This document shows, piece after piece, positions 41,974 through 47,399 of a stretch of 64,000 nt of DNA. Numbering within the stretch: position 1 is the first letter of the stretch; every line of letters begins with the position of its first letter. The position numbers and the translations under genes were made by a program. The stretch is taken from the NCBI GenBank assembly GCA_965204745.1, contig OZ242010.1:1312001-1376000 (forward strand). The letters run 5' to 3'. The notes under the pieces are model-generated. The model saw only the letters and a program-made list of their open reading frames with translations. It was not told the origin of the DNA and did no database searches. Origin of the DNA: Candidatus Latescibacterota bacterium (GTDB taxonomy: Bacteria; Latescibacterota; UBA2968).

Positions 41974-42791
41974 GGTTCTGTTGACATTTGGGATATTTTG
42001 AGTTACTCTGTGTGTATGTCAAACCTTATTCTTTCTGCGAACCAGTGGCCTAAAATTCTCGCATTCATCCGCGAATGCCCTCGCGTCTATGTCGGCGAGG
42101 AAGCCGGTTGCAAACGCTTCATTGAAGCGGTTCTGTGGGTGATGCGCTCGGGTGGTCAGTGGCGTCAGTTGCCCGCACAGTACGGGAAGTGGAACACAGT
42201 CTATAAACGCTTTGCTCGCTGGTGCCGGTATGGCGTGTGGGAACGCATGCACCAGCATTTTACGTCTGATCCAGACTTGGCATGTCTGATCATTGACAGC
42301 ACTGTCGTGCGTGCTCATGCCTGTGCAGCGGGTGCCTCAAAAAAAAAGGGGGGCAAGCCGCGCAAGCCCTCGGCAAGAGCCGAGGCGGGTTCAGCACCAA
42401 AATCCATCTCTGCACAGATGCGCGTGGCCTCCCGCTCCGGTTTCGACTCACACCGGGACAAACCCACGATATCACGCAAGCCGAAGCGTTAATCGCTGGG
42501 TATGAGAGCCGATCTGTCATCGCGGATAAGGGCTATGATTCACAAGCGTTTCTGGACGTCCTTTCTCACCATGGACAGGTTGCCGTGATTCCGCCCCGGT
42601 CTTATCGCAAGACCCCGCGTGATTATGATCGCCATCGGTATAAGCAACGCAATTTGATTGAGCGGTTGATTGGAAAAATGAAGCAGTATCGCAGGATATT
42701 TGCTCGCTTTGAGAAACTCAGCACGAGTTATCGAGGCTTTCTCGCTTTTGCGGCCACGCTCATCGCTCTAAAACAAAATGTCAACAGAACC
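41974..42791 (+). mobile_element. IS5 family, IS427-group insertion sequence (818 bp)
   Basis: TA|GGTTCTGTTGACATTT ... AAATGTCAACAGAACC|TA; two-ORF transposase. Confidence 0.93.
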
Positions 42792-42794
42792 TAA
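42016..42794 (+). CDS. IS5/IS427 transposase expressed by -1 frameshift at the A-run/G-run (~42339-42353)
   Basis: orfA WRQLP..YGKWNTVYKRF..IDSTVVRAH..SKKKGG; orfB ADKGYD..YKQRNLIERL..RFEK. Confidence 0.9.
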
Positions 42795-42815: not shown

Positions 42816-43373
42816 ATGGTTTCCACTTCTGATTTTCGCACGGGCATGGTGATTCGCCTGAATGGGCAGCTTTTTTTTCTCACTGAGTTTGAGCATTTTA
42901 AGCCCGGCAAGGGGGCTGCGGTCGTGCGGACCAAACTCAAGAGCGTGCAGTCTGGCGCGGTGATCGACAAGACGTTTCGATCCGGCGACAAGGTGGATGA
43001 TGTGCGCTTGGAAAAACGCAAGAGCCAGTATTTGTACCAACAGGATGCGTTTTACATTTTTATGGATACGCGCACCTACGAGCAGTACGAAGTGCCCCAA
43101 GAGACCGTGGGCGACGCACAAAAGTTGTTGAAGGAAAGCGAGATGGTCGAGGTGCTCGTCGCCGAGGGCAATGCCTTGGGCGTGGAACTGCCCATTTTTG
43201 TGGCGTTGAAAGTCGATCAAACCGATCCCGGGCTGCGCGGAGATACGGCCACGGGCGGCACAAAGCCCGCGCGCGTCGAGACCGGTGCCACAGTACAAGT
43301 CCCGCTGTTTGTCGAGATTGGCGATGTGCTGAAAATCGACACGCGCACCCAGTCTTATGTGGAGCGGGTTTAG
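42816..43373 (+). CDS. efp: Elongation factor P
   Basis: KPGKG, PGLRGDTA, VPLFV, IDTRT..YVERV. Confidence 0.97.
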   Translation: MVSTSDFRTGMVIRLNGQLFFLTEFEHFKPGKGAAVVRTKLKSVQSGAVIDKTFRSGDKVDDVRLEKRKSQYLYQQDAFYIFMDTRTYEQYEVPQETVGDAQKLLKESEMVEVLVAEGNALGVELPIFVALKVDQTDPGLRGDTATGGTKPARVETGATVQVPLFVEIGDVLKIDTRTQSYVERV

Positions 43374-43436
43374 GCCCTTCCCAAGGTTTGAGACAGTGCA
43401 TTTTGCGAGACGATAAACTACTCAAGGAGAAAGCGC

Positions 43437-43910
43437 GTGAAAATTTCCAAACAAGTGATGACCGTGGTCAAAGACCTCATCGACCTCATCGGGGCTGATG
43501 AGGTGCAGGAAGTCGAAATCGAGCGCAAGTTCTTCGGACGCGGGCGCATTCGCGTGGTGCGTGCGAACGGGCAGGTTCCCATCGTGCAAACGCTGGGCGC
43601 GCCGGCCCCTGCCGAAGCACAAGAGCCGCAGGCAGAAGACGATGCGGTAAGCGAAGACGAGAGCCGGTACCACACCTTGCGGTCGCCGATGGTGGGGATG
43701 TTTTACCAATCGCCAAGCCCGGACGCGCTGCCCTATGTCACAGAAGGCGACGAGGTGACGCGCGGGCAGACCTTGTGCATCATCGAAGCCATGAAAATCA
43801 TGAATGAAATCGAGAGCGATGTAAATGGCCGGGTGGTGCGCGTGCTGGTCGATAATACCTCGCCCGTGGAATACAATACCCCCCTGTTTTTGATCGACCC
43901 ACAATCGTAA
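43437..43910 (+). CDS. accB: Acetyl-CoA carboxylase biotin carboxyl carrier protein
   Basis: SPMVGMFY, EAMKIMNEI biotinylation motif. Confidence 0.95.
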   Translation: MKISKQVMTVVKDLIDLIGADEVQEVEIERKFFGRGRIRVVRANGQVPIVQTLGAPAPAEAQEPQAEDDAVSEDESRYHTLRSPMVGMFYQSPSPDALPYVTEGDEVTRGQTLCIIEAMKIMNEIESDVNGRVVRVLVDNTSPVEYNTPLFLIDPQS

Positions 43911-44070
43911 CCGCTCTTTCAAATCGTAACATCTTGTAACATCTTGTCACAAATCGCACAATTTGAATAGACGCTTCATCGGGCTTGCGTCCTGACTCCG
44001 TATAGCGTCAGTCCGTCTTACAGCACCTCCACGTCCGTTTTTTACTTGCTCGGAGAAGCTCGCCGCGCAA
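43911..44070 (-). ncRNA. TnpB omega-RNA (reRNA)-like scaffold at the right end of the IS607-like element
   Basis: Minus strand: GCGGCGAGCTTCTCCGAGCAAGTAAAAAACGGACGTGGAG..GTAAGAC..hairpin..GATGAAGCGTC..GAAAGAGCGG; matches the recalled ACGnnnGTGGAG...GATGAAGCnnn layout with GACG/CGTC pairing. Confidence 0.5.
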
Positions 44071-44421
44071 GTGATAGTTGGTTATTACCATCATTCCTTT
44101 GGATTTTACGCTGGCAGGAGATTTTAGGTCTGTCGCTTGGTTATCGCTGTCACAGACGTTCCTTCGCCAGCAACCACATATCCCGCTTCACTTGTCAAAG
44201 AACAAGAAAAACAAAAAATCCGCCGATGGTTGAGACCAAAGCCACGCTTTGCCACCGGCGGAATGAGATAAATACAAATAGGGCGTGGCTGTTGGTCTCG
44301 TTACTTAGATGACCGCAAACCGCAAAAGGTTTCACTTATTTGTGCGATTTGTGATGATTTGTTACCATTTGTTACGATTTTCGCACACTGTTAAAAGCCC
44401 TCCATTTTCGAGATCATAACC
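43911..44421 (-). mobile_element. Protein-free IS607-like element between accB and accC
   Basis: GG core at both junctions (plus-strand CC 43911-12 and 44420-21); inverted sub-terminal arrays of four 10-bp repeats; removal restores accB TAA-CC-TTG accC. Confidence 0.6.
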
Positions 44422-45765
44422 TTGTTCAAAAAAGTTCTCATTGCGGACCGCGGCGAAATCGCGTTGCGGATTATCCGCGCCTGCAAAGAGTTGGGCTTGC
44501 AGACGGTCGCCATTTACTCGGAGGCCGACAGCAATTCCCTGCACGTCGGGATGGCTGATGAAGATGTGTGTATTGGCCCGCCCCCGGGCGATCAGAGCTA
44601 TCGCAACATCCCGCGCATTTTGAGCGCGGCTGAAGTGACCGATGCAGACGCGATTCATCCCGGGTACGGGCCCCTGGCTGAAAATGCCGAGTTCGCTGAA
44701 ATTTGCGGCACATGCGGGGTCGCGTTTATCGGCCCGTCTGCGGATGCCATCCGCAAAATGGGGGACAAGGCCATCGCGCGCGAGACCATGCAACGAGCCG
44801 GAGTGCCGGTCGCGCCGGGCACGGGTGTTTTGGAAAGCTATGCCGACGCGCAAAACGCAACGCGCCGCTTGGGGTATCCGGTGCGCCTCAAGGCCGTTGC
44901 AGGCGGCGGGGGCAGGGGCATGCGAACCGTGTTTTCCGAAGGCGAGTTGGAACGCGCCTGGCACATGGCGCAAGCCGAAGCGCGGGCCGCCTTTACGTCC
45001 GGCGCGCTCTATTTGGAAAAAGAAATCGCGCAACCTCGGCATGTCGAGATTCAGGTGTTGGGCGATTTGTCCGGGCGCATCGTGCATTTGGGCGAGCGCG
45101 AGTGTTCGGTGCAGCGGCGGCATCAAAAGCTCATCGAAGAATCGCCTTCGCCTGTGGTCGATGATGGCTTGCGCGAGCGCATGGGGCAGGCGGCCCTCAA
45201 AGGCGCGTCTGCGGTTGGGTACGCCAGCGCGGGCACGGTAGAGTTTTTGCTCGACGCGTCCGGCGAATTTTACTTTTTGGAGATGAACACGCGCATTCAA
45301 GTCGAGCATCCCGTAACCGAGATGGTGACCGGCTTGGACCTCGTCAAATGGCAGATTCGCATTGCGGCCGGCGCGTCCTTGCCGCGCGCCCAAGATCTGT
45401 TCGCGTTCAAGGGACACGCGATAGAGTGCCGCATCAATGCCGAGGATCCCGACCACCACTTCAGACCCTCGCCCGGCACGATTGCCACGTTTCACATGCC
45501 GGGCGGGCCGGGCATTCGCGTGGATTCACACGTCTATGCGGGGTACACCGTGCCGCCGCAATACGATTCCCTCTTGGCAAAGCTCATCGGGTACGGGGAC
45601 ACGCGCGACGAGGCCATTGCCCGGGCGGTGCGCGCGCTCGACGAGTTTGTGATCGAAGGCGTGCCCACGACCATTCCGTTTCACTTGCACGCCTTGCAAC
45701 ACGAGGATTTTAGAACGGGCCGAACCACGACGGAATTTGTGAACGAGTTGGGGTACGGGGGATGA
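44422..45765 (+). CDS. accC: Acetyl-CoA carboxylase biotin carboxylase
   Basis: [46 protein letters not shown]. Confidence 0.96.
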
Positions 45766-46188: not shown

Positions 46189-46632
46189 ATGAGTCTTGTA
46201 CTGACACAGCGGGAAGCCGATTCCCTTTTGAACCGCGACAAGCATTACATGGGAAACGAACAATTTTCCTTTCCCGGTTTGGGCGGCGCGTTGCGAATCC
46301 CGTTGTATTCCAATGATCGCCGCGAGGAATTTAGCTTGGACATCACCCGAGGGCGCATCGAACTGCGAAAGAATACGTTCCAAACACGGGCGCGACGAGT
46401 CGCGATTTTGGCGCGTGTCGATATTGGGGGTCCACCGCACCGCAATCCAGATGGGAGAGAAATTCCCTGCCCACACCTACATATTTATCGGGAGGGATAT
46501 GGTGACAAATGGGCGATACCTTTGCCTGATAACTTCAAAAATTATCGGGATGCGTGGCAGACCTTAATGGACTTCATGGATTATTGCCATGTGGTCACTC
46601 GACCCCCCATTCAGCCGGAGTTGTTCCCATGA
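46189..46632 (+). CDS. DUF6978-like protein
   Basis: LARVDIGGPPHRNPDG...PHLHIYREGYGDKWA. Confidence 0.7.
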   Translation: MSLVLTQREADSLLNRDKHYMGNEQFSFPGLGGALRIPLYSNDRREEFSLDITRGRIELRKNTFQTRARRVAILARVDIGGPPHRNPDGREIPCPHLHIYREGYGDKWAIPLPDNFKNYRDAWQTLMDFMDYCHVVTRPPIQPELFP

Positions 46633-47399
46633 TGATTCGAGAAATCGCTAAACTGGTCAATGAGTACACGCGCTGGTTGGGGGATAAAACCATTTTTAAG
46701 GAGATCGATACGGCTTGGGTCGAGATCACGACGCCGTATCTGGATCGGCATAACGACTGCTTGCAGATCTATGCGTGCAGGGAAGGCAATGGATTCGTTC
46801 TGACAGATGATGGTTATATCATCAATGATCTCATCAACTCGGGTTGCCCTCTCGATACGCCGAAACGTCGCGCATTGTTAAAGACAACGCTGGCGGGATT
46901 TGGCGTGCAGATGGCGGGAGATCAATTGACTGTCCACACCACGCGAGAAAATTTTTCGATAAAAAAACACAATATCATCCAAGCCATGCTATCGGTAAAC
47001 GACCTTTTCTTTTCAGCTTCTCCTTATGTCGCCAGTCTCTTTTTGGAAGATGTAACGAACTGGTTGGAGTCGTCGGATATTCGTTATACGCCGCATATCA
47101 AGTTCACGGGCAAGAGTGGTTACGATCACATGTTTAATTTTGTGATCCCCAAGTCTCGCAGCCAGCCCGAGCGCATTGTGCAAGCCGTGGCAAATCCTCA
47201 AAAAAATTCAGCGGAAGCACTCGTGTTCAAATGGCTGGATACCAGAGAAATGAGGTCGCCCGATGCCATGCTGTTTGCCTTTCTAAACGATAGCAATCTC
47301 AAAGTCTCGCAATCGGCGATTGGGGCGTTGGAAAATTACGATCTTAAACCCGTGCTTTGGTCACGACGAGAAGAATCCAGGGAGTTATTAGCGGCATGA
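46629..47399 (+). CDS. DUF1828/DUF1829 domain protein (C-terminal restriction-endonuclease-like fold)
   Basis: ITTPYLDRHNDCLQIY, LTDDG, GKSGYDHMFNFVIP; ATGA-coupled. Confidence 0.75.
   Translation: MMIREIAKLVNEYTRWLGDKTIFKEIDTAWVEITTPYLDRHNDCLQIYACREGNGFVLTDDGYIINDLINSGCPLDTPKRRALLKTTLAGFGVQMAGDQLTVHTTRENFSIKKHNIIQAMLSVNDLFFSASPYVASLFLEDVTNWLESSDIRYTPHIKFTGKSGYDHMFNFVIPKSRSQPERIVQAVANPQKNSAEALVFKWLDTREMRSPDAMLFAFLNDSNLKVSQSAIGALENYDLKPVLWSRREESRELLAA

Follow-up and report, generated by a model that had tools for sequence, protein, structure and literature searches.

A protein-free IS607-family element with a predicted TnpB guide-RNA scaffold between accB and accC of a Candidatus Latescibacterota genome

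The window described here is a stretch of 64,000 nucleotides from Candidatus Latescibacterota bacterium (contig OZ242010.1, positions 1,312,001 to 1,376,000 of the forward strand), in which an insert of 488 bp separates accB from accC. As judged by sequence comparison, this insert (43913-44400) is a non-autonomous deletion derivative of an IS607-family element, similar in kind to a miniature inverted-repeat transposable element (MITE) or a palindrome-associated transposable element (PATE). It lacks both tnpA and tnpB, and none of the six open reading frames scanned in it (ORFs; 36-88 aa) gives a Pfam match at E<=1. An earlier note, made from the letters of the stretch alone, had claimed as much and had read the insert as a protein-free IS607-like element placed at GG; this reading is borne out by the ends, the repeat arrays, the lack of a target duplication and four tnpB-bearing elements with matching ends in the same genome. 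Besides both ends, the insert keeps a predicted scaffold for the omega RNA, the guide RNA of TnpB, whose structure is clearly conserved among related right ends. The site is composed as follows.

43437..43910, plus strand: accB, biotin carboxyl carrier protein, 157 aa (Pfam Biotin_lipoyl, E 2.2e-20; tblastn to 30 relatives)
43911..43912, unstranded: right-end junction, with the crossover dinucleotide CC (minus strand, GG); CC in all four aligned copies; G018 reads TAACC/CTCC (slash, junction)
43913..44400, minus strand (tnpB/omega-RNA sense): non-autonomous IS607-family element, 488 bp, delimited by genome copies, aligned boundaries and the G018 empty site
44399..44400, unstranded: CC (GG on the minus strand), left-end junction; the flank in tnpB sense is GGAGGG/CTTTTAACAG, from aligned copies
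44401..44421, plus strand: native accB-accC spacer CTCCATTTTCGAGATCATAACC, outside the element; it matches G018 upstream of the accC TTG with 2 differences
44422..45765, plus strand: accC, biotin carboxylase, 447 aa, TTG start (Pfam Biotin_carb_N, CPSase_L_D2, Biotin_carb_C)

The gene order is efp (42816-43373), accB, a gap of 511 bp, accC and gcvH; ORFs and Pfam domains agree with the neighbours and the accC TTG start given in the earlier note. Spacers between accB and accC were compared in 30 relatives, comprising 18 of the same genus (G018 and 17 others; AccC identity 89-94%) and 12 of the neighbouring family. In G018, whose AccC is 93% identical, the site is empty: the spacer is 24 bp long (CCCTCCATTTTCGGGATCATACCC), and the locus reads accB-TAA-CC-CTCCATTTTCGGGATCATACCC-TTG-accC (...CAATCGTAACCCTCCATTTTCGGGATCATACCCTTG) with the junction TAACC/CTCCATTTTCG. 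Taking out the 488 bp brings back this arrangement, exact at the junction, with the 2-bp crossover as the only shared bases; a target-site duplication is absent. All 18 same-genus relatives are without the 488 bp, their spacers measuring 24-101 bp (85-101 bp in the 17 other than G018); spacers in the neighbouring family are 52-161 bp. The 3' part of the native spacer at 44401-44421 has similar sequence in the same 17 genomes besides G018.

The boundaries were also read from four copies aligned with their flanks, in which similarity starts directly after the flanking CC (...TAACC/GCTCTTTC) and stops at ...GTTAAAAGCC/, which is position 44400; in a BLAST search with a 509-bp query, the full-length matches at 1853222 and 3401168 both end at query base 488. 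On its own (minus) strand the element begins GG/(G)CTTTTAACAGTG and finishes ...TTTGAAAGAGCGG/. The limits may equally be written 43911-44398, with the same length. The insert therefore lies 2 nt past the accB stop and 21 nt ahead of the accC start. The earlier note had placed it at 43913-44421, exactly at the gene junction and with a minus-strand GG at both ends; its left limit and the GG at 43911-43912 hold, and its accB side is right to within 2 nt, but its right limit has to be moved to 44400, because the G018 empty site keeps the last 21 bp as native spacer. Within that spacer a CC occurs by chance at 44420-44421, the true one being at 44399-44400. Of four public sequencing runs examined, three have contigs that cross both junctions (these three come from three studies, one of which may be the genome's own source), and no empty-site joint was seen in the four, of which one, without cover over about 43836-44371 and with its contig beginning at 44404, is uninformative.

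Near each end stands an array of phased repeats.

43921..43961, unstranded: right-end subterminal array of putative TnpA sites, AAATCGTAAC, ATCTTGTAAC, ATCTTGTCAC and AAATCGCACA; distance from the terminus 9-49 bp
44340..44380, unstranded: left-end subterminal array of four repeats of about 10 bp, 21-61 bp from the terminus

As the earlier note had described, the two arms are inverted and have four units of about 10 bp each; they are 41 nt long and 83% complementary. The host genome (5.48 Mb, a single contig, 97.65% complete) returned 20 BLAST matches to the insert, far above chance, including two further full-length protein-less copies at 1853222 (c1853, 90% identity) and 3401168 (c3401, 74%). 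The omega-RNA motif occurs in 12 genome copies, eight of them protein-less and four with intact tnpB. The latter (A_1802, B_3902, C_4230 and D_5319) are tnpB-only elements of 1.4-1.5 kb, encoding TnpBs of 409-413 aa with no internal stops and no tnpA; they share with the insert the termini GG/(C/T)..AACAG...GAGCGG/. The subterminal repeats of C_4230 are of the same kind as those of the accB/accC copy, and its right-end array, like those of c1853 and c3401, is kept. In tnpB sense, GAGCGG terminates all 12 genome copies and 14 of 15 aligned related right ends, local and sibling (L065 has GATCGG). At the left end, the flanks of all 11 elements finish in GGG; this count leaves out one of 12 pattern matches, at 177273 (flank ..agaa), judged to be a chance 12-mer. 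The corresponding right-end pattern search was dropped, the pattern being too short and giving many chance GAGCGG-type matches. The 3' end of accB itself contains AATCGTAAC (43903-43911), identical to the first right-end subterminal repeat (43922-43930) and present also in the G018 empty site; such a TnpA-site-like sequence may have directed the choice of target, or the identity may be chance (n=1).

The assignment to IS607 rests on these ends and on the tnpA genes of relatives, because the TnpB protein does not decide the family. Elements of the IS607 family are reported to exchange at GG with no target duplication, and in IS1535 four phased 9-bp motifs, about 20-60 bp from the left end, are bound by TnpA (PMC6188088). 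The insert agrees in having GG at both junctions together with an empty target, no duplication, and four phased repeats of about 10 bp some 10-60 bp from the termini. Among named genomes, the TnpBs most similar to those here (71-72% identity) come from three loci labelled 'MAG: uncultured Latescibacteria bacterium' (MAG, metagenome-assembled genome); in two of the three, L064 and L066, a tnpA with MerR-HTH and Resolvase domains lies directly upstream of tnpB. Both have the left terminus GGGG/TTTTAACAG..., also written GGGG/TTTTAACAGTTGCG..., and the right terminus ...AAGGAGCGG/. The tnpA of L064 (1840-2507) is split into two overlapping ORFs of 122 and 138 aa and is probably a frameshifted pseudogene.

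What the right end appears to encode can be followed in more detail.

43911..44072, minus strand: predicted omega-RNA scaffold, made up in order of the P1 hairpin (44044-44072), AAACGGACGUGGAGG, an inner hairpin, GAAGCGUC, the repeat array and GAGCGG

Homology links this scaffold to the right ends of the four tnpB-only elements and of L064-L066: the final 160 nt or so of the insert can be aligned to the 3' end of tnpB together with the right end in four local and three sibling elements, and in the tnpB copies the last 150-200 nt or so before GAGCGG overlap the 3' end of the gene, AACGGACGTGGAGG coding for the TnpB C-terminal NGRGG. All of the minus-strand blocks listed in the earlier note (AAACGGACGTGGAGG, GTAAGAC, GATGAAGCGTC and GAGCGG) were found in the insert, and those other than GAGCGG show a few one-base variants among the related right ends. 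Over this stretch the insert departs from the tnpB copies mainly in the inner hairpin, whose pairing is maintained by compensating changes: the tnpB copies have CACG/CGTG, most protein-less copies CAAG/CTTG, the accB/accC copy itself CTGAC/GTCAG and the sibling MAG GCCCTG/CAGAGGC. RNAalifold on 15 sequences predicted the P1 hairpin, a GACGU/GCGUC helix and a GG.GCU helix; compensatory changes occur at five of the 15 pairs, pairing holds in 94.7% of cells as against 25-40% with the partners slid, and the covariation score of 0.245 (shuffled mean 0.127) is reached by none of 500 shuffles. The alignment was enlarged by a metagenome search with the motif AAACGGACGTGGAGG-N5-TAAG, from which 80 of 96 stretches were taken and 56 distinct slices added, L154 being excluded as a likely chance match. 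Over the resulting 71 sequences one P1 pair is CG in 38, GC in 22 and UA in 8, with like switches at four other pairs, counts that come from related sequences and overstate what are few independent events. Whole-element folds are stable on both strands (z -4.8 and -5.1), and folding energy does not separate the strands because the end arrays pair.

The guide sequence follows because the right-end boundary is common to all copies: the predicted guide TTACGATTGTGGGTCGATCA corresponds in reverse complement to the final 20 nt of accB (43891-43910), so that the guide from the accB 3' end proposed in the earlier note stands as a prediction. It occurs once in the genome, where no site of GGG plus guide prefix was found. 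The empty site reads GAGGG/TTACG, and GAGGG matches a transposon-adjacent motif (TAM) reported for IS607 elements; AGGAG or GAGGG has been given for IS607 TnpBs whose right-end element RNAs (reRNAs) derive from RAGATH-18 (PMC11061315), and a strict GG requirement with a TGGG TAM for IS607 (10.1101/2023.11.20.567912). At the occupied site the guide target is preceded by ...AGCGG, for which reason self-cutting is not expected.

The element keeps both ends with their phased repeats, the tnpB left-end leader, a hairpin specific to protein-less copies and the full predicted omega-RNA scaffold, and we propose that a serine transposase inserted it at GG, without target duplication. Its identity, boundaries and family, the conserved RNA structure and the intact TnpBs encoded elsewhere are shown, while expression of the RNA, loading, homing and tolerance by read-through are inferred. 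The minus strand would be transcribed into an omega RNA whose 3' guide is the final 16-20 nt of accB in reverse complement, and one of the four intact TnpBs encoded elsewhere would take it up in trans, forming a complex that would cut the emptied site alone, where GGG is followed by TTACGATTGTGG...; the cut would force repair from a sister copy carrying the element, which is the homing or retention role shown for TnpBs of IS605 and IS607. Insertion into an essential operon would be tolerated through read-through from accB to accC; such tolerance would be explained by the antisense orientation, by a terminator-like hairpin that lies on the minus strand only and by the intact native start region of accC. 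The insertion leaves the accB stop and the 21 nt before the accC TTG as they were, each of the 18 same-genus relatives has a conserved context around this TTG, and no plus-strand terminator-like site was found inside the element. Taken as a whole, we regard this explanation as probable, though by no means assured.

Several observations weigh against it, including the few independent events behind the covariation counts and the TnpB family scores considered below. No tnpA of the host genome stands beside repeats of the TCGTAAC/TTGTAAC type. The genome does hold six IS607 elements with tnpA and tnpB (tnpA 170 bits on NF033518, cut-off 110), but these six carry GTCAAC-type repeats; the earlier note had suggested looking for an autonomous IS607 with tnpA and tnpB, and the elements with matching ends in this genome hold tnpB only. 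Since a tnpA with matching repeats is lacking, the element may be immobile now, and homing would then have no object. Nor is the insertion recent, given only 90% and 74% identity to the two nearest copies. The covariance-model scan that the earlier note had recommended matched no Rfam family: over 43000-45500, Rfam 15 gave only a chance mir-360 match (E 9.8) at E<=10, a miss to which we give no weight, as no control scan was made on tnpB-bearing right ends and library coverage may explain it.

Some of these points also speak for the strongest rival, according to which the insert is an inert fossil: the same IS607-derived MITE with no usable omega RNA, immobile, and serving as a neutral spacer through which accB-accC transcription reads. 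The missing tnpA with matching repeats fits it, as do the 10% and 26% divergence from the nearest copies and the presence of the element, with no empty-site joint, in all three runs that cover the junctions; sigma-70-type promoter candidates for the omega RNA are weak as well (9-of-12 matches only, none convincingly placed). A fossil would not, however, readily account for the intactness of every conserved scaffold block, nor for the divergent CTGAC...GTCAG hairpin, which keeps its length and pairing as expected under selection on RNA structure, and four intact TnpBs persist in the genome. We consider a fossil possible but rather unlikely.

The earlier note had gone further and suggested that fatty-acid synthesis genes could be regulated, either by the antisense RNA or by a nuclease-dead TnpB of TldR-like kind; in this reading accB and accC would be controlled through the guide. 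The guide does match accB at its 3' end, the element runs antisense to the operon, and TldR-type exaptation of TnpB has been published (10.1101/2023.11.30.569447). However, all four TnpBs retain the RuvC D-E-D, aligned to D191, E278 and the third Asp of ISDra2 TnpB, of which D191 and E278 are named in PMC8612924. The occupied-site flank is ...AGCGG and not GGG, no other site of GGG plus guide exists, and the guide is the right-end flank, as in all other copies, falling within the accB 3' end and not at a promoter, where a TldR-like regulator would be directed. When the right-end 293 nt were searched in 20 other genomes of the genus, no match was found at E<=1e-8, so that the family is not a conserved regulator of the operon; close relatives thus added no copies to the covariation analysis. 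The consequence for accB and accC appears to be little, their coding and start regions being intact and nothing indicating regulation, and we judge exaptation for regulation very improbable.

A PATE of the IS200/IS605 type, moved as single-stranded DNA by a Y1 TnpA, has the TnpB protein partly on its side. The TnpBs have the Pfam domains OrfB_IS605, Cas12f1-like_TNB and HTH_OrfB and score 256 bits on NCBIfam guided_TnpB NF040570 (cut-off 100); they reach 217 bits on IS607_TnpB, below its cut-off of 350, and a slightly higher 244 bits on IS200_TnpB, itself below a cut-off of 425. Among natural proteins of solved structure the closest is ISDra2 TnpB, of the IS605 family (residues 10-386, E 1e-43), an AI-designed nuclease scoring higher still, and some metagenomic relatives of the omega RNA finish in ...GATGTCAA instead of GG. 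Set against this, Y1 transposase (PF01797) has no match in the 97.65% complete host genome, both junctions are GG, the ends carry phased direct repeats and not subterminal hairpins, and a serine tnpA adjoins the 71-72% TnpB relatives, so that we give this origin hardly any credence. That the insert is regulatory spacer native to accB-accC, with GTNAC boxes of the OmpR type, to which its GTAAC/GTCAC repeats phased at 10 bp might point, is refuted by the recurrence of its sequence elsewhere in the genome, where the same ends also flank a tnpB gene, and by the lack of the 488 bp in all 18 same-genus relatives, leaving it a negligible probability. The earlier note had named three findings that together would favour such boxes; two turned out otherwise, the relatives' spacers being short and tnpB elements with matching ends existing, and the third, a covariance-model miss, is the Rfam result above.

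Returning to the IS607 deletion derivative, two further modules lie between its scaffold and its left-end array.

44110..44171, minus strand: long hairpin of about 60 nt, in all eight protein-less copies (also L002-L008) and not in the four tnpB-bearing elements
44206..44299, minus strand: left-end leader common with C_4230; nested hairpins GAGACCAA..GCCACGC/GCGUGGC..UUGGUCUC and UCCGCCGGUGG/CCAUCGGCGGA, then U6GU5, terminator-like

A 137-nt slice spanning the long hairpin and P1 holds 30 pairs with nine two-sided changes, 95% of cells paired as against 24-43% when slid, and a score reached by none of 500 shuffles; the 44110-44171 hairpin proper, helices 1-3, accounts for 18 pairs and seven two-sided changes. 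Comparison of the protein-less core with tnpB coding sequence gave insignificant local alignments only, and a metagenome scan for the core pattern specific to protein-less copies gave no match. The leader hairpins were seen as inverted repeats and in the minimum-energy fold; in C_4230, hairpins and U-run stand just upstream of the tnpB start, and the copies, compared with C_4230 and c1853, differ by compensating changes (CCACGC/GCGTGG vs CAAGGC/GCCTTG). The leader may act as an attenuator, or as an insulator against read-through into tnpB.

The omega-RNA core is joined in this genome to three unrelated sets of subterminal repeats. The accB/accC copy, c1853 and c3401 have the TCGTAAC type; m4339 and m5275 have the CGATTTCATACGAT type, resembling the ends of A_1802, B_3902 and D_5319; and m3055, m3848 and m5434 have the GGTCAACAATGATCAAC type, resembling the six tnpA-bearing IS607 copies. 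The copies with the second and third sets lie at 3055908-3056247, 3848536-3848876, 5434330-5434670, 4339274-4339758 and about 5275083-5275335, the last truncated on its 5' side. This distribution suggests an exchange of transposon ends between omega-RNA cassettes. Because eight copies share a covarying hairpin of about 60 nt and their core joins three repeat sets, we also entertain, as a doubtful proposal to which we attach limited confidence, that the protein-less copies are a specialised guide-only parasite of TnpB and not deletion debris, the accB/accC copy being an actively defended insertion in an essential operon. If so, omega-RNA cassettes would swap ends to use any available serine transposase while borrowing TnpB in trans, and the 44110-44171 module would help to express or stabilise the omega RNA without depending on how tnpB mRNA is processed.

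Protein-less carriers are also found outside this genome. In the metagenome contigs (L105-L184), AAACGGACGTGGAGG-N5-TAAG marks a widespread omega-RNA family whose right ends are either ...GGAACGG (GG type) or ...GATGTCAA, so that elements with either kind of end appear to use one and the same omega-RNA scaffold. At the 51 metagenome loci with at least 1300 nt upstream, a TnpB homologue ends at the motif in 19 and is lacking in 32; the open frame across the motif is shorter than 100 aa in 22 of these 32, two of which are likely chance matches. The frequency of protein-less carriers in the clade (32/51) lowers the novelty of the accB/accC copy. Guide-only elements have been described for IS605, as PATEs, and among the papers listed in a literature search none was found to describe them for IS607.

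Compared with known systems, the insert is closest to IS607, whose tnpB-sense right end likewise abuts the guide and for which a reported TAM (PMC11061315) matches the GAGGG of a G-rich left flank; it differs from IS607 and IS1535 in lacking both tnpA and tnpB, in a genome with no tnpA beside the same repeat type, and in an associated TnpB below the IS607_TnpB cut-off. The PATE-like IS200/IS605 elements of Geobacillus stearothermophilus (PMC10055086) are likewise minimal, with both ends and an omega RNA used in trans, but are moved by Y1 as single-stranded DNA and have palindromic ends, whereas the ends here are of serine-recombinase type with a GG core. The IStrons and tnpA-less IS607 elements of Clostridium are likewise on an IS607 frame, with tnpA-less copies within one replicon, a GG target, a TAM of TGGG type and a right-end omega RNA used for retention (10.1101/2023.11.20.567912); unlike them, the insert has no group I intron (Rfam, E<=10) and no tnpB, and lies intergenic and antisense instead of being spliced from a gene. 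The ISDra2 reRNA, reported as an RNA of about 150 nt derived from the 3' end of tnpB and the right end and carrying a flank guide of about 16 nt (PMC8612924; PDB 8bf8, 8exa, 8h1j), offers a further parallel, although ISDra2 belongs to IS200/IS605 and has a TTGAT TAM, in contrast to the GGG flank and IS607-like ends here. The RAGATH-18-derived reRNAs are also right-end guide RNAs of IS607 TnpBs (PMC11061315); the scaffold here appears to belong to a different family, closer to ISDra2, and no Rfam family (RAGATH-18 included, if it is in Rfam) matched it at E<=10.

The accB/accC insertion is a clean natural example of a protein-less IS607-type element that retains a structurally intact omega RNA, combining a sister-species empty site with four intact TnpBs that could act in trans and an IS607 serine tnpA found only in sibling elements. 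The local family provides defined material on trans use of TnpB, on the GGG-type TAM of the clade and on end exchange between cassettes; its interest lies mainly in the modular ends, the module confined to protein-less copies and the empty-site control.

Further genes lie near these loci. Adjoining C_4230, a 360-aa ORF at genome positions 4228656-4229738 (L012 153-1235, minus strand) is IS110-type transposase-like by eye. Directly upstream of efp in the window, 41998-42794 encodes a two-ORF IS4/IS5-family transposase (DUF4096, E 2e-20, then DDE_Tnp_1_2, E 8e-7); it resembles an IS5/IS427-type element whose two ORFs are separated by a frameshift. Just downstream of gcvH, overlapping frames at 46189-47399 encode a DUF6978 protein (147 aa, E 1.5e-47) and a DUF1828/DUF1829 protein (281 aa).

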